A stretch of DNA of 11,966 bases from Candidatus Iainarchaeum sp. (GCA_028700115.1 JAQVTI010000017.1:1-11966); one strand, 5' to 3'; shown: positions 3-11,915, numbered from the stretch's first letter. A program made the numbers and translations. Notes: a model not told the origin generated them from the letters alone.

Positions 3-866
3 ATTGATAAAGACAGTTTCATTCTTACCAAGAAAAACAAAAAGGTAATTGTTAAGAAAAGAAAATTAACTTGGCAAAATCCATTAACTATAAAAAATAA
101 ATTAGATAGAATAAAATTTGAATATAGAAATATATTTTTAGTAATTAAATATTTTAATAAATTAGAAATGTATAATGGAGATAAAGAAATCGATATATCT
201 AAAGAATTTATAATCAACTACAAAGGACATAAGATTAAAACAGACTTCTTGCAACTTAAAGAACTAGAATATGGAATTGAAAGTTATAATTTACAATATA
301 GTTTAAAGAAAGGAGACATAGTTTTTGACTTTGGAGGATATCATGGAGTTTACTCTATTTGGGCTAGCGCGCAAGTTGGGGAAACCGGGAAGATTTATTG
401 CTTTGAACCTAATAAAGAAAACTATTCTGTTCTTTTAGAAAATTTAGAAAATAATAATATTACTAATGTTATTCCAATAAATAAAGGAATCTACAATCAA
501 TCTGGGAAAATTAGTTTTTTTAAAAGAGGTCCTGGATCAAGAATTATTGATTCTAGTTTTAAGACAAACACAAAAGATTCAATATGTGAAATTGATGTTA
601 TTCCTCTTTCTCAGTTTATTAAAGAAAAGAATATAACAAAAATTGACTTTATCAAAGCAGACATTGAAGGAGCAGAGATTGAATTTGTTGATGACTATCT
701 AAAAAACCTTCTGCCGCAAGGCTTACGACCAAAGATGGCAATTGCCAGTTACCACTATCGAAAAGAACTAAAAGAAAACACCAGCCGCTCAATTGCAAAA
801 GCATTTAAAGACAAAGTAATAAAAGTAAATATAGGGAATAAGAAACACCTGTGTGTTTTTGTTTAA
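3..866 (+). CDS. FkbM-family SAM-dependent methyltransferase. The 5' end is probably outside the window; the first in-window ATG is at 168.
   Basis: The ORF 168..866 carries a glycine-rich SAM loop, DIVFDFGGYHGVYS (compare FkbM D-x-G-A-x-x-G), and IDFIKADIEGAEIEF, the K-x-D-x-E-G-x-E hallmark of the FkbM/Methyltransf_21 family. The same frame has no stop from nt 3 to 167 (55 codons), which is unlikely by chance in such AT-rich DNA. That stretch contains no ATG, GTG or TTG, so the CDS most likely starts left of the window. Confidence 0.8.
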   Translation: MDKDSFILTKKNKKVIVKKRKLTWQNPLTIKNKLDRIKFEYRNIFLVIKYFNKLEMYNGDKEIDISKEFIINYKGHKIKTDFLQLKELEYGIESYNLQYSLKKGDIVFDFGGYHGVYSIWASAQVGETGKIYCFEPNKENYSVLLENLENNNITNVIPINKGIYNQSGKISFFKRGPGSRIIDSSFKTNTKDSICEIDVIPLSQFIKEKNITKIDFIKADIEGAEIEFVDDYLKNLLPQGLRPKMAIASYHYRKELKENTSRSIAKAFKDKVIKVNIGNKKHLCVFV

Positions 867-881
867 AATTAAAACCAAACG

Positions 882-1559
882 TTATTTCTTTTTAATACAA
901 AAATAAATATTTCCCGAATTTAAATTATTTCTAAAAAAATAATAATTTAAATATGCATAAATTAATCTTTTATTTTTCCACAAACCATTATATTTTGAAA
1001 ATATAAAAACGGGTTTTATTTCTATAATTTCAAATCCGTATTGTAAAAATAATTTATAAAGCTTATCTATAGAATACGAATCTTCATGACCCCATTTATG
1101 AAATGTTTTATTACAATAAGGACATAAAACCATTTCGGAACTTAATTCTTCATTTAAAGGAACAGTCCCTATAAAAAAACCGCCCTTTTTTAATACCCTT
1201 TTTATTTCTATTAAACTTTGTGGAATTTTTTTTTTGTCAATATGCTCTAAAACTTCTGATGCAACAATTAAATCAAAATAATTCGATTCCCAATTTATTT
1301 TTTTTGTAATATCTGAATTAAAAATAACGAAATTCTGATTATTGTTAGTGGTACATATATCTGTTCCATAGACCTCATAATTTTTTGCTAAATTTAAAAG
1401 ATATCCATTACCATAACCTATTTCTAATAAACGTCCTGTTGATTTAAGGTTTTTTAATTTTTTAAATAAATATTCATAACGGCTTTTAAGAAAATTATCG
1501 GTAATTTTATTTTTTTTAAAATAATCATTCCATATGTTTTTTTGAAATTGAGCGTCCAT
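882..1559 (-). CDS. Class I SAM-dependent methyltransferase (Methyltransf_11/23-like) with a CxxC...HxxxH insert
   Basis: Motif I is LLEIGYGNGYL. The acidic post-I residue is in YGTD. Motif II is FDLIVASEVLEHI and motif III is LKKGGFFIGTVP. These are followed by CPYCNKTFHKWGH. Confidence 0.8.
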   Translation of the reverse strand: MDAQFQKNIWNDYFKKNKITDNFLKSRYEYLFKKLKNLKSTGRLLEIGYGNGYLLNLAKNYEVYGTDICTTNNNQNFVIFNSDITKKINWESNYFDLIVASEVLEHIDKKKIPQSLIEIKRVLKKGGFFIGTVPLNEELSSEMVLCPYCNKTFHKWGHEDSYSIDKLYKLFLQYGFEIIEIKPVFIFSKYNGLWKNKRLIYAYLNYYFFRNNLNSGNIYFCIKKK

Positions 1560-1656: not shown

Positions 1657-2421
1657 ATGATTAAAATTGACTATTTAAGATTTCCATTTCGCCTGTCTGA
1701 AATATTATATAATGACTCTGAAGATTTAACTCTGTCACTATCTACTTTTAAAATATATAATTTAATTCAATCTACAGAAATAAATGTGCCGGTCAAATAT
1801 TTAATTTACAAAAAAACATTTTATACTACCAAAATTAATCTTAAAACAGAACTATCCGAAATTTATGATTCCTTTGATAAAAAAAGCACAAAATATGAAA
1901 TTAATTGCGCAAAAAAAGAAACAAATAATATTTCGTTAAAAGTAAATTGCGATTATTCTGAATTTGCAAATCTTTCTAGAAAATATTATTTACAAAAATA
2001 TAATATTTCAAAAGATATTAGCAAAAACCTAGAAAAATATAAAAACTTCGGAGATTTAATTACAATATATTATAATGACAACTTAATTTCTGGAATTTTT
2101 GTAATAAAAGATTATCCCAATAGAATTAGATTATTATATGCATATAGCACCTATTTGGAGAACCCAGATTATAAAAAAAAATCTAGTTATTTAAATAGAT
2201 ATATTCATTGGTGGGCTATTCAAAAATATAAAACCGAAGGATTTTATGAATATGATTTTGGGGGCATAAATATAGACCCGAATTCAAAAACCTATGGCAT
2301 CACTAAATTTAAACTAAGTTTTGGTGGAAAAATTTGTGAAGAATACAATTATCTGATTTCAAAATATGCAAAAATATTAAAACCAATATATAATTTAAAA
2401 TATAGTGATTCTTATGACTGA
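1657..2421 (+). CDS. FemAB-like / GNAT-fold (Acetyltransf_6-like) transferase; substrate unknown
   Basis: The C-terminal region LISGIFVIKD...LLYAYST...YLNRYIHWWAIQKYKTEGFYEYDFGGI...YGITKFKLSFGG matches, by eye, the conserved FemX/FemAB core (W-x-x-I-x-x-A-x-x-x-G-x-x-x-Y-D-F-G-G ... G-x-x-x-F-K-x-x-F-G-G). At 254 aa it is shorter than typical FemAB proteins. Confidence 0.55.
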   Translation: MIKIDYLRFPFRLSEILYNDSEDLTLSLSTFKIYNLIQSTEINVPVKYLIYKKTFYTTKINLKTELSEIYDSFDKKSTKYEINCAKKETNNISLKVNCDYSEFANLSRKYYLQKYNISKDISKNLEKYKNFGDLITIYYNDNLISGIFVIKDYPNRIRLLYAYSTYLENPDYKKKSSYLNRYIHWWAIQKYKTEGFYEYDFGGINIDPNSKTYGITKFKLSFGGKICEEYNYLISKYAKILKPIYNLKYSDSYD

Positions 2422-3157
2422 TAAAAATTTACTTGCTTGGTCAAATAAGTTCTTAGTTAACACATATAATAATTACGATTTATTTCCTGCAGAAAAAAGA
2501 ATATTATCTAAATTAAATTTAAAAAATAAAAAAATTTTAGATGTTGGCATCGGCACTGGTAGGACCACAAATTATTTAATTAAACTATCAACTAAATATA
2601 TGGGTATAGATTATTCTCCAGAAATGATAAAGTCGGCGAAGAAGAAATTTCCTAAAACAGATTTGCGTGTAAAAGATATAAGAAAAATAAAATATAAAAA
2701 CAAATTTGATTTCATATTTTTTTCATATAATGGAATCGACTATTTAAAAAATAAAGAGCGGCACCGTGCTTTTTTAAAATTATATGCTTCGCTTAAAAAA
2801 AATGGATATTTTTTGTATTCTTTTCATAATTATGATGGATATAATCCAAAAAAACCATTATTTCAAAATAATTCGAAAAATATTTTCTTAAAAATTAAAT
2901 CTTTTTTTCGCTATATTATTTGTACTTATAATTATAATAAATTAAAAAAAGAAGAGAACGATTTTCATAATTACGGATATTTTATAGATGGAGGCGGATA
3001 TTTTAATCTTATTACACAATATACTAAGATAAAATCAGAATATAGTTTTCTTAAAAAATATTTCATAGTAACCTTTTTTAATATAAACGGAAAGAAAATT
3101 AACCCAAAGGAAAAACAAACTGATTGGATGATTTATGTATTATGTAAAAAACGATAA
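2414..3157 (+). CDS. Class I SAM-dependent methyltransferase
   Basis: Motif I is ILDVGIGTGRTTNYL, post-I is MGIDYSPEMIKSAKKKF, motif II is FDFIFFSYNGIDYL and motif III is LKKNGYFLYS. I prefer the ATG at 2414 (MTDKNLL...) over the GTG at 2405. It gives an 8-nt overlap (ATGACTGA) with the stop of the preceding gene. Confidence 0.8.
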   Translation: MTDKNLLAWSNKFLVNTYNNYDLFPAEKRILSKLNLKNKKILDVGIGTGRTTNYLIKLSTKYMGIDYSPEMIKSAKKKFPKTDLRVKDIRKIKYKNKFDFIFFSYNGIDYLKNKERHRAFLKLYASLKKNGYFLYSFHNYDGYNPKKPLFQNNSKNIFLKIKSFFRYIICTYNYNKLKKEENDFHNYGYFIDGGGYFNLITQYTKIKSEYSFLKKYFIVTFFNINGKKINPKEKQTDWMIYVLCKKR

Positions 3158-3888
3158 AGATATAATTTAAAGTAATAAAAACAAACAAATAATACATCTA
3201 AAACTTTGTTTCTTTTTATTTTTAATTTATGGACATTTTCAAAATTTATTAAACTATTTTTGTTTTTTAAACAAAAATCATTTATTTCTTGCAATTTCTT
3301 ATTTGTAATATCTTTAGGATGAAAATGATTCACAAAAATTCCGTGCTTAAATAAATCTAACTTAGGATTAAGTTGATTTTTTTGTTGCGGTATGTGTTTT
3401 ACACCAAAATATTCAAAAGGGTAAAGAGAAATACCGTCTACATTTATCAAATTGTATTTATTTAAAATAACCAAGGTGTTTTCGTCATAGTTGTGGGCAG
3501 GAGCAAAAAAATATTTTGGTGTTATATCTAATCTTTTATTTAATATATTAATGCCTGATTTTATCATTTTTTCTTGAATTTCGATATTTAATCCAGAAAA
3601 TTCACTATTTCTATTTAATTTTAATATTCCTTTATTTCCATAATGATACCTATGTTCATACCCGTGTAATGCAATAATAATTTGGTTTGTTTTAATAAAT
3701 GGTTTTAAGTCTTCGATTCTAAATATTGATTTTTTTTCCTTAATTGATTCATCTTTAACTGCGGGAATAACACCCAGTAGTGGTTTTATATTATATTTGT
3801 TTAATAATTTAATAAATTTAATTACATTCTGAGAATTAGGCATATTATCGCAAACATCATCCATTCTAAACAAATTATATTGAGTCAT
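3133..3888 (-). CDS. DUF2334-like protein (predicted polysaccharide deacetylase-fold enzyme)
   Basis: The N-terminal FRMDDV...IKPLLGVIP, then IALHGYEHRY and FFAPAHNYDENT, match the DUF2334 pattern (R-x-D-D-V, IP, H-G-Y-x-H) as I recall it. The start ATG overlaps the upstream stop as ATGA. Confidence 0.6.
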   Translation of the reverse strand: MTQYNLFRMDDVCDNMPNSQNVIKFIKLLNKYNIKPLLGVIPAVKDESIKEKKSIFRIEDLKPFIKTNQIIIALHGYEHRYHYGNKGILKLNRNSEFSGLNIEIQEKMIKSGINILNKRLDITPKYFFAPAHNYDENTLVILNKYNLINVDGISLYPFEYFGVKHIPQQKNQLNPKLDLFKHGIFVNHFHPKDITNKKLQEINDFCLKNKNSLINFENVHKLKIKRNKVLDVLFVCFYYFKLYLYRFLHNT

Positions 3889-4913
3889 TTTATCAACATT
3901 ATATTATTTTCTTTAAATATTTTATCTATTTTATTTTTTATTATTTTTAGGTCATTATTTTTTTTAATATATGTTCTTCCTAATTCTCCCATTTTTTTTA
4001 ATTTTTCTTTTTTATAATAATTCTCTTTAATCAAAGTAATAAACTTATTTAAATCTCCATTTGCACAATAACCCCCGCCACTTTTTTCTAAAAGATAGTC
4101 TGGATTTGCTGAATAAGATATAACTGGCGTTTTATTTGATAACGCTTCTAATGTTGTATTAGGATATCCTTCTGAATAAGAGGTATTTATGTAAATTGAT
4201 GCTAAATTAAAATAATCTTGCATTTTTTGTGGGGCAACTCTGCCTAGTATCTCACAATTCTTGTGTATTGCAATGTCTTTATTTGTAATGCCAACTATTT
4301 TAAATTTAATTTCGGGTAACTCTTCTATGATTTTTTCTAATATATCTAAACCTTTAACTTTATGATTTCTACCAACCCAAAGAACAAAATTTTCATTTTT
4401 ATAATTTGATTTCTGTACGTCTATTGGATTTGGGACTCTATAAATTGGGTGATTATATTTATTTAATTTTTTTTCTTGTATCTCTGTTTGGCAAATAAAT
4501 AAATCAACACAAGGAAATACTAATTTTGGAACATATCTATAATAAAAGGAAGACTCTTTTAGAAATAACCCTACATCTGAGTTGCTAGAGATAAAATAAA
4601 CTATTTTTTTATTATATAATTTTGCTAAATAGAAATAAATTGGAGAAAATCGTGAAAGTGCAAAAAAAACAACAACATCTGCATTTTTAATTGCTGAAAT
4701 TATTTTTATAAAATCTGTTTTTGTGTTTTTTATAAATACATATTTCCGTTTAGAAATATTTACGGGAATATTTTTTAAACTCACTAAAAAAGAGCAATTT
4801 TTATAATCTTTAAATATAGACTGCGCTTTTTTTTCAGCACCACCTGCTGGTTTGCCTTCTAATAATTTGCCTATTTGAGGACAAACTATTAATATCTTCT
4901 GATTACATTTCAT
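3885..4913 (-). CDS. Family 4 (GT-B, retaining-type) glycosyltransferase; paralogue of 10884..11915
   Basis: The C-terminal half carries the GT4 E-x7-E region SEGYPNTTLEALSNKTPVISY. The N-terminus is KILIVCPQ...GGAEKKA. It aligns by eye along its whole length to ORF 10884..11915. Confidence 0.85.
   Translation of the reverse strand: MKCNQKILIVCPQIGKLLEGKPAGGAEKKAQSIFKDYKNCSFLVSLKNIPVNISKRKYVFIKNTKTDFIKIISAIKNADVVVFFALSRFSPIYFYLAKLYNKKIVYFISSNSDVGLFLKESSFYYRYVPKLVFPCVDLFICQTEIQEKKLNKYNHPIYRVPNPIDVQKSNYKNENFVLWVGRNHKVKGLDILEKIIEELPEIKFKIVGITNKDIAIHKNCEILGRVAPQKMQDYFNLASIYINTSYSEGYPNTTLEALSNKTPVISYSANPDYLLEKSGGGYCANGDLNKFITLIKENYYKKEKLKKMGELGRTYIKKNNDLKIIKNKIDKIFKENNIMLIK
4050..4106. repeat. 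Paralogous nucleotide patch, copy 1 (partner 11031..11087)
   Basis: A hand alignment gives 50 of 57 identical positions, including a 19-nt perfect run (taaatctccatttgcacaa). It encodes NPD..LEKS.GG.CANGDL in both GT4 paralogues. Confidence 0.6.
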
Positions 4914-6036
4914 TATATTTACACCAATTATAATAACTTAATATACTCCAATATTTTGGATTATTAGAATCCGAAATAATTTTATTAAAGTAGTGTTCTG
5001 GGATAAACTTTTTAAAATAGTCATATTTTATATCTATTTCCGTTCGCATGTTTTTTAAATCTATAGCAAACCCTTTTTTATCTTTATAAATATTTTCGTT
5101 TAAAACACGATCTTCTACTGATTTTTTAAAAATATATTTCAATATCTTATTGTTAAATCGCAAATTTGGTGGGATTCTATATGACAATTCAATTAATTCA
5201 GAATCCAATAGTGGAGGTCTAGATTCTAAAGATACCGAAAGAGATGCCCGGTCTACTTTTGTTAATATATCATCCGGCAAATATGCTTTAAAGTCTGTTT
5301 CTTGAGCACAATTTAATAAATTATTCTCCTTTATATTAAAATTATTTGATATTACGAAATAATAATATCCGTAATCTGCAAAATAACTTGCTTTTTTAGA
5401 AAAATAATAATTATAATTATTTTCTATTAATTTTTTCCAAATAAAGTCTGTATTTTTTATAATTTGATTTAAAACAGTATATTTGCGCATCTCTCTATAT
5501 CTTTCATAACCCCCAAATAATTCATCTCCCCCATCTCCACTTAAAGAAACAGTCGCATATTTCTTTGCAATTTCAGAAACAAACATCGTTGGAATTTGAG
5601 AAGAATCTCCTAACGGCTCATCATAATATATTGGGACTTTATCTAAGAGTTTATTAAAATCTAAATCTGTTAATATTTTTGTGTGATTAATTTCGATGCC
5701 TATATCTGTATCATTTGCAACAAAGTATATTGTTTTTTTTCCAAATAATTTTGATATAATATAATATAATGGTGTTGCTTTAGATAAAGCTCTTGAACAT
5801 ACTATTTGATGTTTTATTATTATGATTGGAAGCCCTAAATAATATTCTAATTTTGATTTTTTAAATATTACTTCTATATTTTTATAAGATACACTTTTAT
5901 TTTTTGATCCAATAACATAAAAACTAGTGTTCTTTATATTTTGAAAAATATCTATAGACGCTTTTTCGCTGCCACCCGCCGATCCCCCTTCAAATATCTT
6001 GCCGGCTTGAGGTAAAATCACCAATATTTTTTTCAT
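4903..6036 (-). CDS. Chimeric ORF: a GT4-like N-terminal fragment fused in frame to the C-terminal half of an AsnB-type asparagine synthase (amidotransferase). It lacks the glutaminase domain and the PP-loop, so it may be a fusion remnant.
   Basis: Residues about 10-125 (MKKILVILPQAGKIFEGGSAGGSEKA ... KLFGKKTIYFVANDTDIGI) parallel the N-termini of both GT4 paralogues. From about residue 127 the sequence is YYDEPLGDSSQIPTMFVSEIAKKYATVSLSGDGGDELFGGYERY ... YLPDDILTKVDRASLSVSLESRPPLLD, which are Asn_synthase domain hallmarks. I could find no SGGxDS PP-loop, no N-terminal Cys glutaminase domain and no GT E-x7-E half. I prefer the start at M10 (ATG 6036), 5 nt after the upstream stop. Confidence 0.7.
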   Translation of the reverse strand: MKKILVILPQAGKIFEGGSAGGSEKASIDIFQNIKNTSFYVIGSKNKSVSYKNIEVIFKKSKLEYYLGLPIIIIKHQIVCSRALSKATPLYYIISKLFGKKTIYFVANDTDIGIEINHTKILTDLDFNKLLDKVPIYYDEPLGDSSQIPTMFVSEIAKKYATVSLSGDGGDELFGGYERYREMRKYTVLNQIIKNTDFIWKKLIENNYNYYFSKKASYFADYGYYYFVISNNFNIKENNLLNCAQETDFKAYLPDDILTKVDRASLSVSLESRPPLLDSELIELSYRIPPNLRFNNKILKYIFKKSVEDRVLNENIYKDKKGFAIDLKNMRTEIDIKYDYFKKFIPEHYFNKIISDSNNPKYWSILSYYNWCKYNEM

Positions 6037-6041
6037 GATTT

Positions 6042-7508
6042 TTACTCTTTTGCATCTCTCCAATATTCTGGAATTATAAAGTCGCGAGACTTTATTTCTT
6101 TTAATTTTTTTATTTCTTTATTTTTATTCAAAATTATTATTTCTTCATCAAAAATTGTTTTTAATTTATTTGGAACTAATTTGGATCTTTTATCATAATA
6201 TCCATCATTAACTTGTTTTATCTTCTTTAGATTATAGCCCATAATCTTTGCAATTGTTGCATCTATCAATATAGGATTCTCACCGATAATTGTAACCCCA
6301 CAAAATTTATCTTTTGGTCTTAATGGGCCATTGTCTTCTCCACAGATTAACCCATCAACAATTGTAAATACTTCTCGTTTTTGTTTTTTCTCAAATTTTT
6401 TTGTTTTTGTATTATAAAAATATAAAATATTATTCAAATCCAAGATTGTTCTCCAAATGGTGTCGTTACCAGACCAACCCCCGTCCAATATTTTATCCTT
6501 AGAGGTGATTTTCCCTAGAACAAACAAAGAACTTAACATAAAAACTATGCTTTTTCTTTTAATTTTTGATAACTTATCATAATTTCTATAGAAGTAATCT
6601 GCAAGAAAACTATATCTTTTTTTAAAAAAATTATTGTTTATGTATTGATCTCCATTTTCCTTTGCTGAACCGAACCTATGATGTGGCAAATATTCTTTGT
6701 GACCATTCATGCCTATGAAATTCTTTAAGGCGCCTGTTAAACCGGCCTTTATGTGTGTTTTTAATTTTGGAACATTAAAAACAATATCTGCATCAAGAAT
6801 TGTTTTACTTACTAAATATTCATGTGTACCTTTCTGATGATGCTTGTGCATTAGATCTGGATTGTAGTTTGTAACTCTAAAACTATCTTCTAGTTTTGTG
6901 ATATCTTCTAAGAAACTATTCTCTTTTATGTTAATTAAATAATAACCGGCTTTATCCCCTTCATTCTTCTTTTGAGAAATATCAAAATCTTTCTTTTCAA
7001 ATATCGTTTTTCTTAAGTCTAATAATTCAAATTTGATTTTTGGATAATTCTTTTTATATAAATCCAATAACTTATCTATTTTTTGTTGTTTTACTAACTT
7101 TTCAAAATTACAACTCTGCAAAGGTGCATCACAAACAATTATTTTGCCTTTCCCTTTTAATGCTATTATTGAATAATCAATTATGAATTTAATGTATGCA
7201 GTATTAGTGATTAAGGAATCTATTGTTCCTTCCCTATTAATATCTAAAACATAGTTTGGCTTTATTACCACTGTATTTCCAGACTTTATATAGTTCTTAA
7301 AAGGATTCCACTTATTTTTATTAAAATTATTTCTATCAAGACCATATTCAAACAACCCTTTTCTTAAGGAATCATAGAAATTATCATTTTGAATCCTAGG
7401 TTTGCTCTTAAACTCCGGATAATCTAATCCGACAAATAAGAACTTTGGATATTTTTTTAAGTTTTCAATCAAAACTATATTTTTATTACTTAACATATCT
7501 TCCCTCAT
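6042..7508 (-). CDS. DUF362 domain-containing protein (function unknown)
   Basis: GNTVVIKPNYV, KIIVCDAP, VPKLKTHIKAGLTGALKNFIGM and FTIVDGLICGEDNGPL...IIGENPILIDATIAKIMGY match the DUF362 pattern (IKPN ... PKLKTH..G.T.ALKN..G ... vDg..gmEGnGP ... D.v.a.lmG). I prefer the start at ATG 7508 (MREDMLS...), which overlaps the upstream TGA by 1 nt (TGATG), over the longer ORF starting at 7577. Confidence 0.75.
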   Translation of the reverse strand: MREDMLSNKNIVLIENLKKYPKFLFVGLDYPEFKSKPRIQNDNFYDSLRKGLFEYGLDRNNFNKNKWNPFKNYIKSGNTVVIKPNYVLDINREGTIDSLITNTAYIKFIIDYSIIALKGKGKIIVCDAPLQSCNFEKLVKQQKIDKLLDLYKKNYPKIKFELLDLRKTIFEKKDFDISQKKNEGDKAGYYLINIKENSFLEDITKLEDSFRVTNYNPDLMHKHHQKGTHEYLVSKTILDADIVFNVPKLKTHIKAGLTGALKNFIGMNGHKEYLPHHRFGSAKENGDQYINNNFFKKRYSFLADYFYRNYDKLSKIKRKSIVFMLSSLFVLGKITSKDKILDGGWSGNDTIWRTILDLNNILYFYNTKTKKFEKKQKREVFTIVDGLICGEDNGPLRPKDKFCGVTIIGENPILIDATIAKIMGYNLKKIKQVNDGYYDKRSKLVPNKLKTIFDEEIIILNKNKEIKKLKEIKSRDFIIPEYWRDAKE

Positions 7509-8779
7509 CAAATATTTGAAATTGTGTACCTGTGTTTTCCTTGTTTTGTTTTTTGTATTGAAGTTACAAATTTCCAATCTATAATTGTGTCTTTACCCAC
7601 AACTAATTTTATTTTAGAATCAATATCTTCTTTATCTTTTGTATTTGGTTCTTTGCCATCAATTAATACAATATATATTGTAATCTTTTTAAAAGACTCC
7701 TGAACAACTTGAAATAAATCAACCCAATCCCTAAAATAAAATAAATGAGTAAAATACTCCCCATGCACAATCTTCCCTGTGCTTGTCTTAAAATGATCTG
7801 TTGTCCTGCCAGTTATTTTTTTTAAAGTCGGTAAATTATATTCTTTATTTAAATCCCCTTTGATTGCTGTATCTCCAATCTCATATCTTATTAATGGAAA
7901 ATAATAATTATGTAAATTAGTTATTACTAATCTGCCCTCTTCACCTGGTAAAACCTCATTATTATTTTCATCTAAAACTTCTATGAAATTATCAAAAGAG
8001 AAAATTAAATATTCATTTTTATGTAATTCTGCAGCCATTGCACTAACTTCTCTTGAACCATAGAAATCATATACCGGACATTTAAATGCACTTTCAATTT
8101 CTGCTCTCATAAAGTCCTTTAATTCCTCTGCTGAAGAATATATAAATTTAGGAGAATAAATCGAAATATTTTCTTTATTTATGACTTTTGCTACTTCATA
8201 CAAAGATCCGGCATAGCCTTTTAAGAAAACTGGCTTTTCTTTATTGATAACTTCTATGTATTCTTTAATTTTATTGTAGTCCATGAGAAAAGAATTCAAA
8301 AAAGTTTGATTATTTAAAAAATTAGATAATTTTCCCTTTAAATTCATTTGTTTGAAAATATCTTTTTCGGATCCCCAAAGAATTACTTTTTTACAAAATG
8401 TATTTACTTGTCTTACATCTTGTAAATAATACATCATTGTAGCATAACTCCAATCTATATAATTTCTATCTTGATATATTAAAATGGGTTCGCCTGTTGA
8501 TCCCCCAGAAGTATTTGTAACTATGCCTTTCTTAGATCTATTAATATAAAGAGGCAAATAATCTTTTCTTATTATTTCTTTTGTTAAGATTGGATAATCA
8601 GTTAATCTTTGATAACTACTGTTTTTATAAAACGGATTTTGTTGTGCTTGAATTAATAATAATTGAAGATACTTATCTGTGAGTGATTTATTGTCTTTTG
8701 TGAGTTTTGTTTCATTATAATTCTTGAAGAATCTTTTACCAGTTATCCCCGCCGCAAATTTTAATAATTGTGTTCTCAA
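7508..8779 (-). CDS. PaaK / coenzyme F390 synthetase-like adenylate-forming enzyme (COG1541; often annotated CapK)
   Basis: The motifs seen are FYKN...LTDYPILTKEIIRKDY, TNTSGGSTGEPILIY (AMP-binding P-loop type T-S-G-S-T-G-x-P), YGSREV, GRLVITNLHNYYFPLIRYEIGDTA and GRTTDHFKTSTGKIV. The start is TTG at 8779, preceded by AAGTGGATTAT. No in-frame ATG occurs upstream of the conserved N-terminal motifs. Confidence 0.8.
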   Translation of the reverse strand: MRTQLLKFAAGITGKRFFKNYNETKLTKDNKSLTDKYLQLLLIQAQQNPFYKNSSYQRLTDYPILTKEIIRKDYLPLYINRSKKGIVTNTSGGSTGEPILIYQDRNYIDWSYATMMYYLQDVRQVNTFCKKVILWGSEKDIFKQMNLKGKLSNFLNNQTFLNSFLMDYNKIKEYIEVINKEKPVFLKGYAGSLYEVAKVINKENISIYSPKFIYSSAEELKDFMRAEIESAFKCPVYDFYGSREVSAMAAELHKNEYLIFSFDNFIEVLDENNNEVLPGEEGRLVITNLHNYYFPLIRYEIGDTAIKGDLNKEYNLPTLKKITGRTTDHFKTSTGKIVHGEYFTHLFYFRDWVDLFQVVQESFKKITIYIVLIDGKEPNTKDKEDIDSKIKLVVGKDTIIDWKFVTSIQKTKQGKHRYTISNI

Positions 8780-8790
8780 AATAATCCACT

Positions 8791-9753
8791 TTATAATTTA
8801 TTTGTTAATTTTTTATTTTTCTTAAACCAACTTACAAAATTCTTTATACCTTGCTCAATGTTTACTTTTGGATTATATCCTAATAGATTTCTTGCCTTTT
8901 CTATATTACCCCTTGTTTCTTGGACGTCTCCTTTTTGCATAGGCATATAATTTTTTGTGGCTTTTATTCCTAATTCATTTTCAATCAAAGAAATTACATA
9001 TTCTAATTCAACAGTATTATTTGCACTTAAATTAAATATCTCATAATCACAATCATAATTGGTTGCAGAAATAATGCCTTCAACTATATCTGAAACATAA
9101 GTAAAATCCCTCCTCATATCCCCGTGATTATAAACATCTATTGGCTTATTGTTTAAGATGTTTTTTGTAAATAACCAAAGAGACATATCTGGGCGCCCAT
9201 ATTCTCCATAAACTGTAAAAAATCTTAATCCTATTGATTTAATGCCTTGTAATTTATAATAAACATAAGCAGTTTGCTCATTGTGAAGTTTAGTTGCAGC
9301 ATACATCGAAACGGGAGTTCCTAAATTTGCAGTTTCTACCCATTCCTCGTTTACACCTCCATAAACCGAAGAAGAAGAGGCATATACAATTTTAGAAATC
9401 TTCTTTTCTTTTGCATATTCAAATATGTTTAAAGTACCTATAGAATTTGAATTTTCATAAATCCAGGGATTTCCTATAGAATATCTTACACCGGCTTGAG
9501 CTGCTAAATGGATAATTAAATCTATTTCTTTTCCGGCTAGTTTATTTGTTAAATCTTTATATTTGGATACATCTAATTTAATAAATTCAAAATTTTTATT
9601 TTTCTTTAAGATACTTAACCTTTTTTTCTTAATTATCGGATTATAATAATCATTTAAATTGTCAATACCGACAATCGAATTTCCACCCTCTAATAACCTT
9701 TTACAAGTATTATATCCAATAAAACCAGCACAACCAGTAACTAAATATATCAT
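8791..9753 (-). CDS. NAD-dependent SDR epimerase, UDP-glucuronate 4-epimerase-like (UDP-GlcA to UDP-GalA)
   Basis: The motifs are VTGCAGFIGYN (GxxGxxG), IDNLNDYYNPIIKKKRL, HLAAQAGVRYS, YASSSSVYG, YAATKLHNE (YxxxK) and RFFTVYGEYGRPDMSLWLFTKNILNNKPIDVYNHGDMRRDFTYVSDIVEG. This is the motif series I recognise from Cap1J/LpsL-type UDP-glucuronate 4-epimerases. A strong Shine-Dalgarno, AAGGGG, lies 5 nt upstream of the ATG. Confidence 0.85.
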   Translation of the reverse strand: MIYLVTGCAGFIGYNTCKRLLEGGNSIVGIDNLNDYYNPIIKKKRLSILKKNKNFEFIKLDVSKYKDLTNKLAGKEIDLIIHLAAQAGVRYSIGNPWIYENSNSIGTLNIFEYAKEKKISKIVYASSSSVYGGVNEEWVETANLGTPVSMYAATKLHNEQTAYVYYKLQGIKSIGLRFFTVYGEYGRPDMSLWLFTKNILNNKPIDVYNHGDMRRDFTYVSDIVEGIISATNYDCDYEIFNLSANNTVELEYVISLIENELGIKATKNYMPMQKGDVQETRGNIEKARNLLGYNPKVNIEQGIKNFVSWFKKNKKLTNKL

Positions 9754-9810
9754 ATAATCCCCTTAAATATATATTAGTAAACAACAATTTAAATAGTGAT
9801 TTGTTAGTTG
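9754..9810 (-). promoter_or_regulatory. Intergenic spacer with a ribosome-binding site (AAGGGG, 9759..9764) and a possible internal promoter for the epimerase and downstream genes
   Basis: The minus-strand sequence is ...TTTAAATTGTTGTTTACTAATATATATTTAAGGGGATTATATG. It has a clear SD 5 nt from the ATG, with AT-rich TTG.../TATAT elements upstream. This is the only gap over 15 nt inside the operon. Confidence 0.4.
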
Positions 9811-10887
9811 TTATTCTAGAATATTTTTATAATTTTCAATCATATTTTCATAATTAAAATTCTTTAATGAATAATTATAGGCATTATTTACTAATGTGCT
9901 TTGTAATCTTTTATTATCTAAAAAAGATTGTATGTTTCTTGCAATTTCGGTGGAATTTGTTAATTGTACAGAATAGATTATATCTCTACTGAATAACCCA
10001 ATATCAGACATTATTATTGGCTTTTTTAGAGCCATAGCTTCAAGAACTACATTTGGTAGGCCCTCTGTTTTTGATAATAACAACAAACAATCGTTATCTA
10101 ATAGAGCGCCTCTAACATTAGAAGTAAAACCTTGATATTTAATATTCTTTATTTTATTCTTAGAAATATATGTCTTTATTTTATTCTTTAGTGGGCCATC
10201 TCCATAGATATTTAATTCTAAATTACTATTTAATTTAGAAAAAGAATCCATCATTAGAAAAATGTTCTTTATTTTATCTAGTCTACCAATATATGCAAAT
10301 TTCTTTATTGGAATGCACTTATAATTTGCATTTGCGGGTTTATAATCAATACCAAAACCAACTATTTTGTAATTTATTTTTTTAATAGAATATAGTTTCT
10401 TTATTCTACTTGATTCAAATTCAGTTTTTAATAAGAATTTATCCACTAAAAGAGAATAAGTTAATTTTTCTAAAGGATATAATAATTTTGTTTTAGATAA
10501 ATATGCTGGTGTATCCCATCTACAATATAATTTGAACTTTTTAAATTTAAAAATTTTTAAAATGCCAGCAAAGAAAGTTGCCATTATGCCAGAAGTTAAA
10601 ATTTTATCATAATCGCACCTACGGAATAATAAATAAAAAAAGGCATAAAAATTATAAAAAAAACCTTTAGCAAAAAAAGGAGTTTTTATTCTAATTATTT
10701 CTATACCTTCTTGCTTTTCAATACTTTGTTGCCCTTTAAATTTTCTTGTAATTATTTTTATTTTTATCTTGTTTTTTAATCCCGCAATAATTCGTTGAAA
10801 TGAAGTTTCAATGCCTCCAGCTAAATTATCTGAATGCTTATAACCTACAGGATATTCTTTAGCCCCCCAAAATAAAATTGTATTCAT
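9811..10887 (-). CDS. Family 4 glycosyltransferase
   Basis: The motifs are GGIETSF near the N-terminus and TEGLPNVVLEAMALKKPIIMSDIG (E-x7-E) in the C-terminal half. The ATG overlaps the upstream TGA as ATGA. Confidence 0.8.
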   Translation of the reverse strand: MNTILFWGAKEYPVGYKHSDNLAGGIETSFQRIIAGLKNKIKIKIITRKFKGQQSIEKQEGIEIIRIKTPFFAKGFFYNFYAFFYLLFRRCDYDKILTSGIMATFFAGILKIFKFKKFKLYCRWDTPAYLSKTKLLYPLEKLTYSLLVDKFLLKTEFESSRIKKLYSIKKINYKIVGFGIDYKPANANYKCIPIKKFAYIGRLDKIKNIFLMMDSFSKLNSNLELNIYGDGPLKNKIKTYISKNKIKNIKYQGFTSNVRGALLDNDCLLLLSKTEGLPNVVLEAMALKKPIIMSDIGLFSRDIIYSVQLTNSTEIARNIQSFLDNKRLQSTLVNNAYNYSLKNFNYENMIENYKNILE

Positions 10888-11915
10888 AATTCATCTAATA
10901 TTTTTATTAATTGTTTCGAGATATTTTTCAATTCGTGTTCTTTTTTAATATAATTATAACCGTTATTTCCCATTTCTTTAATTTTCTTTTTTGAATTATA
11001 TAATTTATCTACATATTTTTGAAAATCTTTTAAATCTCCATTTGCACAAAAACCCCCTCTACTTTTTTCTAAAAAATTATCAGGATTAACTATATAACTT
11101 ACTATTGGTTTATTGTTCGCAAATGCTTGTAAAAATACATTTGGAAACCCCTCTATTTTGGATGTGCTTATTATAAATTTTGATATTTTATAGTGCTCAT
11201 ACATTTCTTTTTGATTTATTTTACCTAATTGATTTACATTTTCAAAATTAAAAGACAAATCTTTTTTATTAATTCCAATTATCTTAAATTTTTTGTCTGG
11301 ATTTTCAATAATTATTTTCTGCAATATGTCTGTTCCTTTTGTATTGTCATTTCGTCCAACCCACAAAATTTCTTTTCCAATAATAGAATCATTTGGATTA
11401 ATTATTACTGGGTTTTTTAACAAATATATTTTCTTGTTCTTATATCTTTCTTTTAAAATATTGTACTGAAATTCTGTTTGTGCAATAAAAACATCAACTT
11501 CCGAAAAGGTTAACTTTGGAATCCATTTATAATAAGAAGGCACATTTTCAAGCCCCACTCCTACATCTGCATCACAAGTTAAAAAGTATACAATTTTCTT
11601 ATTATTTAATTTGGCTAAAAATATAAATAATGGAGTTAATCTATTAATTGCAAAGATGCAAACATGGTCTTGCTTTTTAATTAATCTAAGAAATTCCCCT
11701 GCAATCTTTAGAATATTATTTGAACAAAAAATCACATTCATTTTATTAATTCTTCGTTTTCTACAATTCCCATTTACAAAAAAAGAAACTTTATATCTAG
11801 AATATCTACTTATTTCATTAAATAAAAGATAAGCACGATTTTCTGATCCTCCTGATGATTTATCAATAAAAAGCTTTCCAGACAACCATGAACAAACCAA
11901 AATCTTTTTATTCAT
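10884..11915 (-). CDS. Family 4 glycosyltransferase; paralogue of 3885..4913
   Basis: The motifs are KKILVCSWLSGKLF...SGGSENRA at the N-terminus, IEGFPNVFLQAFANNKPIVSY, and NPDNFLEKSRGGFCANGDL, which is shared with ORF 3885..4913. Confidence 0.85.
   Translation of the reverse strand: MNKKILVCSWLSGKLFIDKSSGGSENRAYLLFNEISRYSRYKVSFFVNGNCRKRRINKMNVIFCSNNILKIAGEFLRLIKKQDHVCIFAINRLTPLFIFLAKLNNKKIVYFLTCDADVGVGLENVPSYYKWIPKLTFSEVDVFIAQTEFQYNILKERYKNKKIYLLKNPVIINPNDSIIGKEILWVGRNDNTKGTDILQKIIIENPDKKFKIIGINKKDLSFNFENVNQLGKINQKEMYEHYKISKFIISTSKIEGFPNVFLQAFANNKPIVSYIVNPDNFLEKSRGGFCANGDLKDFQKYVDKLYNSKKKIKEMGNNGYNYIKKEHELKNISKQLIKILDEL
11031..11087. repeat. Paralogous nucleotide patch, copy 2 (partner 4050..4106)
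   Basis: The evidence is the same as for copy 1: a hand alignment with 50 of 57 positions identical. Confidence 0.6.

Follow-up and report, generated by a model that had tools for sequence, protein, structure and literature searches.

What joins two genes that share a base in a glycan operon of Candidatus Iainarchaeum sp., one encoding an enzyme that activates carboxylates and the other a protein of the DUF362 family? The question is raised by a stretch of 11,966 nucleotides (GCA_028700115.1, JAQVTI010000017.1:1-11966), called the window below. An initial annotation, made from the sequence alone, had seen there three consecutive genes, for a UDP-glucuronate 4-epimerase-like short-chain dehydrogenase/reductase (SDR), a PaaK/CapK-type adenylating enzyme and a 488-aa DUF362 protein, and had taken the last two for a probable functional pair in a candidate module that modifies the carboxyl group of a uronic acid, the carboxylate activated being either the uronate or a small acid to be attached. 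We propose, with a probability of about 0.55, that the pair is a widespread two-enzyme cassette for the decoration of glycans, in which an ATP-dependent carboxylate ligase works together with a LarA-like DUF362 protein.

The three genes are all confirmed as minus-strand open reading frames (ORFs), and their family labels agree with Pfam and with solved relatives. The first of the trio (8791-9753, minus strand) encodes an NAD-dependent SDR sugar-nucleotide 4-epimerase of 320 aa, similar to UDP-glucuronate 4-epimerases (Pfam Epimerase, E 6e-50). It is followed by a CapK-type adenylate-forming ligase, PaaK-like and of the ANL superfamily, of 423 aa with a TTG start (7508-8779, minus strand; identified by PF27533 and PaaK-type structures), and by the long-form DUF362 protein, hereafter DUF362L, of 488 aa with two domains as in the LarA clan (6042-7508, minus strand; PF04015). 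Reading the sequence directly also verified the TGATG stop/start overlap reported between ligase and DUF362L (7506-7510, minus strand), a single base being common to the CapK stop TGA (7510-7508) and the DUF362 ATG (7508-7506); the two genes are thus coupled in translation. The longest mechanical ORF for DUF362L (6042-7577, TTG start) was rejected, as the N-termini of homologues do not support it.

Neighbourhoods of DUF362L relatives were examined in 80 loci from species-representative genomes, and in a second, independent set of 80 metagenome loci, 40 of which have both flanks. Neighbour genes were taken as stop-to-stop ORFs and classified with hidden Markov models built on our own clusters; the DUF362L holders are mostly metagenome-assembled genomes (MAGs), with the cultivable Anaeromyxobacter oryzisoli SG63 (L030) also among them. 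In 46 of the 80 genome loci the immediate neighbour of DUF362L was a CapK-like gene of like orientation (35 downstream, 11 upstream). Among the loci without CapK, a TupA-like ATP-grasp gene (PF14305) was adjacent in 11 of the 80, mostly in bacteria of the candidate phyla radiation (CPR), a RimK-like ATP-grasp gene adjoined DUF362L in 8, and a further 8 had a CapK-, TupA- or RimK-like ligase at a distance of up to 4 kb. The metagenome set gave a ligase within 4 kb in 39 of the 40 two-flank loci. After pooling and collapsing at 90% identity, 138 non-redundant groups were obtained, and in 77 of them both flanks were 4 kb or longer. A ligase was adjacent in 65 of these 77 groups (84%; 45 CapK-like, 12 TupA-like and 8 RimK-like), and present within 4 kb in 72 (94%). 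The neighbourhood of ligase and DUF362L is thus far above chance. The initial annotation had left its idea of a conserved pair to be decided by such statistics of DUF362 against PaaK-like genes, a failure to co-occur speaking against it; the adjacency counts, the occurrence of both gene orders and the natural fusions described below all uphold it.

On the DUF362L tree, which is discordant with taxonomy, the type of ligase partner switched at least 8 times. Since ATP-dependent carboxylate ligases of three kinds, related distantly if at all, interchange beside DUF362L, the requirement appears to be for "a ligase", and not for one family. The closest relative of the window locus, L001, whose DUF362L is 76% identical, has the same epimerase-CapK-DUF362 trio. 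The pairing is found in numerous phyla; the two proteins are probably a pair of sugar-decorating enzymes not described before.

The association was also looked at from the side of the ligase, in four readable loci of close CapK-like homologues picked irrespective of DUF362. DUF362L was adjacent in two of them (L116 and L118). The other two, L117, where the neighbours of the CapK-like gene are GT4 glycosyltransferase genes, and L119, have the CapK-like gene without DUF362L, a point against our reading of the pair. With the ligase lacking DUF362L in 2 of 4 loci and DUF362L nearly always having a ligase, it seems that the ligase can act alone, and DUF362L almost never. L119 (positions 5001-9999, Okeania sp.) carries a sulfotransferase gene, the CapK-like ligase and then two AsnB-like genes of ~600 aa, a different tailoring combination around the same ligase type.

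An exhaustive search returned 750 DUF362L clusters (50% identity, E <= 1e-30), and fusion proteins were seen among the best 150 of these. TupA-like ligase and DUF362L are fused in both orders, TupA-DUF362L in P0258 and DUF362L-TupA in P0301, so that their coupling must be direct. Other fusions involve glycosyltransferases (GT): DUF362L-GT4 in P0353, GT2-DUF362L in P0374, DUF362L with a TOD1-like GT in P0252, and, in the 1409-aa protein P0290, a TOD1/MUCI70-like GT, a GT2, a TupA-like ATP-grasp domain and DUF362L together. These fusions indicate that DUF362L acts at the site of glycan assembly. In P0340 (882 aa), DUF362L is joined to a PGA_cap (CapA-like) domain. The invariant DUF362L residues are retained in all these fusions. 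A combination of GT2 and TupA-like ATP-grasp amidoligase is known from Cj1438 of Campylobacter jejuni HS:2, whose ATP-grasp domain amidates the carboxylate of glucuronic acid (GlcA) while the capsule chain is being extended (PMC11800379).

Loci for glycan synthesis are mosaics densely filled with genes, and a DUF362L tree discordant with taxonomy could also be expected if ligase and DUF362L were independent tailoring genes that share such loci with no direct coupling. We strongly disfavour this explanation: it does not account for immediate same-strand adjacency at the frequency found among non-redundant loci, for both gene orders, for the replacement of one ligase by analogous ones, or for fusions in both orders.

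The best matches of the window ligase in the PDB are of the PaaK type, 9s3l (1.5e-15) and 4r1l, and the precomputed Pfam annotation of P0121, a protein identical to it, is PF27533, CapK_C. Its translation contains the core motifs of the ANL superfamily: TSGGSTGEP, YGSRE, IGDTA, GRTTDHFKTSTGK / GRTTDHFK and, at the C-terminus, KQGK. The generic Pfam AMP-binding model gave 17.8 bits, under its cut-off of 29.9, and the PaaK equivalog (NCBIfam TIGR02155) was not reached, with 43.3 bits for a cut-off of 646.3. Weak NCBIfam matches were to PaaK, F390-synthetase-related and DdaG models, all far under the equivalog cut-offs.

We then asked what kind of protein DUF362L is. PF04015 matched it with 80.1 bits (cut-off 24), through model positions 82-199 only, at residues 225-420, and it is the only DUF362 protein of the window genome. 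DUF362 and the N-terminal family of LarA belong to the same Pfam clan, CL0471 (PMC11770544), and the chemistry of the LarA family is the racemisation or epimerisation of 2-hydroxy acids (PMC11770544, PMC12611868). An AlphaFold2 model of DUF362L was obtained with a mean predicted local distance difference test score (pLDDT) of 85.8 and a predicted template modelling score (pTM) of 0.90; searched against the PDB with Foldseek, it gave 16 top matches that were all of the LarA family (probability up to 1.00, best E 1.7e-5). By hhalign, H252 fell on the catalytic His174 of LarA and K262 on Lys184, which tethers the nickel-pincer nucleotide (NPN), with an equal spacing of 10 (segments PKLKTH252IKAGLTGALK262 over EPH174FFAGFSGGxK184; LarA numbering was verified on the 2yjg sequence). 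The motif that this alignment brings together is H-x2-A-G-x-[ST]-G-x2-K, and its full form in DUF362L is K248-x-K250-x-H252-x-K254-A-G-x-T-G-x-x-K262 ... L-P-H276-H277. The invariant histidine pair of LPHH (H276/H277) lies 14-15 residues past the lysine, compared to 16 for the LarA nickel ligand His200, in an alignment that is weak as a whole. Eleven residues were identical in 81 of 81 relatives (K250, H252, K254, K262, H276, H224, D127, Q131, D164, R166 and R211), and K248 in 80 of 81. Judged by this conservation, the invariant residues form the active site of an enzyme.

The statement of the initial annotation that DUF362 has no assigned role is correct as far as the literature searched goes, where no functional study of DUF362 or PF04015 was found (PMC12423673 concerns DUF3623/DUF3120 instead). 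It is incomplete in another respect, as DUF362L looks like an enzyme of the LarA clan, with a cofactor motif and with relatives linked to lar genes.

These lar neighbours came from the same loci. The genes larC-larE-larB directly followed DUF362L, or DUF362L-CapK, in 12 of the 80 metagenome loci; at the level of non-redundant groups, lar-adjacent DUF362L amounted to 6 of 138, in 3 lineages at most 51% identical. Gene order was DUF362L-LarC-LarE-LarB-x-RimK-like ligase-GT in L017, a Chlorobium MAG, and DUF362L-CapK-…-LarB-LarC in L058, a Holophaga MAG; both genomes were checked for a LarA homologue and none was found. More widely, LarA was absent from 12 LarC-positive genomes holding DUF362L. 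In L134 a HupE/UreJ nickel permease gene stands between DUF362L and LarC, making it the fullest case of nickel supply within a glycan operon among the loci seen. It comprises (3108-14206 of contig Ga0172369_10004313) two tandem CapK genes, DUF362L, HupE/UreJ, LarC, LarE, LarB, a 369-aa protein, GT4 and DUF2334, with a GDP-mannose pyrophosphorylase gene upstream; its last two genes, GT4 and DUF2334, are also those that end the window operon. The permease was rejected as a general neighbour, being present in L133 and L134 only. Nothing recognisable was found in the 675-bp gap ahead of LarC in L140. In the lar-linked loci of Chlorobium type, L017 (5727-8011) and L145 (5624-7902), two tandem paralogues of ~375-390 aa stand directly upstream of DUF362L, with no family match apart from a faint GH57-like stretch.

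Many genomes are known to carry larBCE without LarA (PMC13524815), and NphT, an aldo-keto-reductase TIM barrel, is a nickel-pincer enzyme that is not LarA (PMC13524815). The hunt for such enzymes excluded LarA homologues, and DUF362 does not appear in the main text of that study (PMC13524815). In bacteria that bear larBCE, DUF362L probably uses NPN. Somewhat short of even odds, and so only tentatively, we extend this to the whole family: DUF362L would be a second, glycan-directed branch of NPN enzymes, always accompanied by an ATP-dependent ligase, and its DPANN and CPR copies, that of the window included, which retain all putative cofactor residues in genomes apparently unable to make NPN, would scavenge the cofactor from a host or neighbour or use a nickel-free pyridinium cofactor at this site.

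Several results weigh against the LarA and NPN parts of our reading. In sequence, the similarity of DUF362L and LarA profiles is weak overall (hhalign E 0.025), and the motif alignment was given by larger profiles only, a 21-sequence profile finding no match with a single LarA. The Lar_N sequence model (PF09861) had no DUF362L match at E <= 0.01, and PDB searches with the DUF362L sequence and with its profile did not find LarA. Foldseek template modelling scores were low (0.2-0.35), which is expected for a hinged two-domain protein. The second catalytic histidine of LarA, His108, had no counterpart in the hhalign alignment, where the region is variable and holds no conserved histidine; in this DUF362L would resemble the single-histidine LarA-like enzymes that exist (PMC12611868). 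As for the genomes, no LarB, LarC or LarE was found in that of the window (0.96 Mb, 89% complete), nor LarC in any of 14 other small DUF362L holders of CPR/DPANN type (0.5-1.6 Mb). The putative cofactor residues are invariant in these small genomes as well, which means that NPN cannot be the whole story. LarC was not seen in 9 of 66 large DUF362L genomes, some of which are probably incomplete MAGs. Among 201 Acidobacteriota, 16 of 17 DUF362L holders had LarC compared to 134 of 184 non-holders (p ~0.05, binomial, uncorrected for phylogeny), the background being already 150 of 201; LarC was present in 23 of 30 further holders. This co-occurrence at the genome level is weak, and we excluded it from the basis of the NPN reading.

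The holders without larBCE would be covered by a different explanation, in which the ligase is a maturation enzyme of DUF362L itself, using ATP to tether a carboxylated pyridinium nucleotide, such as nicotinic acid mononucleotide or a precursor of the pincer, to Lys262 through an amide. Lys262 is indeed retained without exception, also in the 15 small genomes where LarC is missing, some carboxylate-amine ligase is nearly always present, and ligase-DUF362L fusions exist. We nevertheless hold this very unlikely: CapK-like genes occur in glycan loci without DUF362L, the ligase stands beside glycosyltransferase domains in P0290, the Cj1438-like fusion, and it is retained in loci that also carry larCEB. 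For LarA itself, no ligase is known to be required in cofactor loading. Moreover, each of the three ligase families is one usually met in the decoration of glycans (PMC11800379, PMC13419641).

To return to the two-enzyme cassette, its action could be the following. The ligase would activate a carboxylate, as acyl-AMP in the CapK type of the window and as acyl-phosphate in the ATP-grasp versions, and the activated carboxyl would be joined to a nucleophile on the nascent glycan, most likely an amine, to give an amide or possibly an ester. As adenylation and acyl-phosphate chemistries are interchangeable, DUF362L cannot have the activated intermediate as its target, and must act on what enters the ligation or on what results from it. 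Its target would then be the same sugar residue or its substituent. The reaction we infer from LarA is a redox-neutral abstraction and return of hydride, most likely an epimerisation in which a keto or imine group is formed for a moment, with NPN as probable cofactor in the bacteria that carry larBCE. A carboxylate-activating ligase working on a glycan would fit the precedent of Cj1438C (PMC11800379).

LarA-like chemistry could be placed elsewhere, on a free metabolite. DUF362L would then be a soluble racemase or epimerase giving the rarer stereoisomer of a small 2-hydroxy acid (lactate, glycerate and malate are examples), and the ligase would attach this acid to an amino sugar. Such a scheme follows the racemisation and epimerisation known for the LarA family (PMC11770544, PMC12611868), explains the asymmetric pairing, where DUF362L almost always has a ligase and the ligase often has no DUF362L, and requires no source of uronate. 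It would also find a role for the deacetylase-like DUF2334, the last gene both of the window operon and of L134; DUF2334, however, is present in only ~10 of the 160 loci, and was rejected as a third member of the module. The missing counterpart of LarA His108 is a further difficulty, and the four fusions with glycosyltransferases (P0290, P0353, P0374 and P0252) point to the site of glycan assembly and not to a free metabolite. We consider this scheme unlikely.

Is the carboxylate that of a uronate? The initial annotation had this as one of two options, and a complete version of its idea is that the SDR makes UDP-galacturonic acid, the CapK-like enzyme adenylates the C6 carboxyl of the uronate for amidation, DUF362 is a helper, and the pair replaces a truncated AsnB. 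Only 11 nt separate the epimerase from the start of the ligase gene, and it holds the same position in L001. Among solved structures it comes closest to 5u4q (E 1.7e-86) and to 6zl6, a UDP-glucuronate 4-epimerase (E 9e-51), and it reached no NCBIfam equivalog at cut-off. Among the 77 groups, an SDR of epimerase type was found within 8 kb in 25 and Ugd in 14, and the TupA-like partner family contains a proven GlcA C6 amidoligase (PMC11800379). Against these points, a UDP-sugar 6-dehydrogenase (UDP-glucose/GDP-mannose dehydrogenase family) was looked for without success in the window genome (89% complete) and in four of the five other small holders of the pair examined (G003, G011, G012 and G023), and the invariant site of DUF362L has the profile of an enzyme and not of a helper. 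The case for a uronate is founded on the UDP-GlcA 4-epimerase-like neighbour. The uronate as substrate is doubtful, and the scheme as a whole unlikely; we keep uronate amidation as a possibility, and not as the default. The window genome, with neither a 6-dehydrogenase nor larB, larC or larE, would obtain precursors and cofactor from elsewhere, or else the annotations are misleading. The original Staphylococcus cap1K locus, which may make a taurine-modified uronic acid, serves as a lead only. On AglU, the threonine-attaching enzyme of Methanococcus, the literature searched gave nothing.

The AsnB part of the same idea fared worse. A gene does follow closely, beginning 5 nt past the DUF362 stop (4903-6036, minus strand, 377 aa), and it has a partial Asn_synthase domain only, as the initial annotation had seen: the match covers residues 115-328, for model positions 73-293 of 354, and no glutaminase domain was found in the product, which therefore does not have the complete AsnB architecture. 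Ahead of this match, residues 1-114 come from the N-terminal part of a GT4 and have 39% identity with the L001 GT4. In L001, a GT4 gene directly follows DUF362L, with no AsnB-fragment gene, and this GT4 is the 67%-identical orthologue of the one at 3885-4913 in the window. The absence of the fragment gene at the syntenic position indicates that 4903-6036 is an inserted GT4/AsnB chimera, a recent lineage-specific insertion or rearrangement, which may be non-functional and lies outside the conserved module. Full-length AsnB genes stand beside the pair in many other loci, for example L118. The pair is thus not there to replace an adenylation activity lost from a truncated AsnB, since the trio exists in L001 without the fragment and the pair coexists with intact AsnB elsewhere.

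The remaining genes of the window (G+C ~25%) give the context. The trio belongs to a single compact minus-strand operon that runs from 11915 down to 3133. At its head are two GT4 glycosyltransferase genes (10884-11915 and 9811-10887, both minus strand, Pfam matches), ahead of the trio; after the chimera come the GT4 gene at 3885-4913 (minus strand; Pfam) and the final gene, for the polysaccharide-deacetylase-like DUF2334 (3133-3888, minus strand; PF10096, E 4e-32). The other end of the window holds genes for an FkbM-type S-adenosylmethionine (SAM)-dependent methyltransferase (168-866, plus strand) and two class I SAM-methyltransferases (882-1559, minus strand, and 2405-3157, plus strand), and a 254-aa ORF (1657-2421, plus strand) had no match in the Pfam search. 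Methyltransferases flank the cassette in CPR loci too.

New in this work are the displacement of one ligase by another, the fusions, the replication of the pairing in a second sequence collection and the holders without lar genes. Enzymes for the amide decoration of surface glycans have been identified in few cases, and a conserved, widespread cassette can now be put to the test. Which enzymes beyond LarA use NPN is an active question (PMC13524815), for which DUF362L is a candidate with operon support and a predicted tethering lysine, and its lar-less copies in symbiont-sized genomes raise the question of a scavenged or substituted cofactor. DUF362 being a large family without function, any assignment would extend to many annotations.

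Among known systems, four can be compared with the cassette. PaaK-type ANL ligases, such as phenylacetate-CoA ligase or DdaG, the amide-forming fumarate-diaminopropanoate ligase, have domain organisation and adenylation motifs in common with the window ligase, which differs by belonging to the separate CapK_C family, by scoring below every equivalog cut-off, and by its context of glycan biosynthesis, where that of PaaK is aromatic catabolism. With LarA, DUF362L has in common the two-domain fold, LarA structures being its sole significant fold matches in the PDB, by a weak alignment a motif corresponding to His174/Lys184 together with a histidine pair near the position of His200, and, in some lineages, larCEB as neighbours. 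Unlike LarA, DUF362L has an additional N-terminal segment and an additional helical insert, is encoded in glycan operons, where a ligase is its obligatory partner, and occurs in genomes without any lar genes, that of the window included. For NphT the discovery signal was alike, namely larBCE beside a candidate enzyme with no LarA nearby (PMC13524815), whereas the folds are different, a TIM barrel for NphT and LarA-like for DUF362L. Finally, Cj1438 is likewise an ATP-dependent ligase working on a glycan carboxyl and physically joined to glycosyltransferase domains (PMC11800379), and its ligase is of the TupA-like kind that stands in for CapK beside DUF362L in 12 of the 77 groups. It is an ATP-grasp enzyme proceeding through acyl-phosphate, whereas the window ligase is an ANL adenylating enzyme proceeding through acyl-AMP, and it has no DUF362L domain, unlike P0290, which adds precisely this domain to the GT2 and TupA-like combination of Cj1438.

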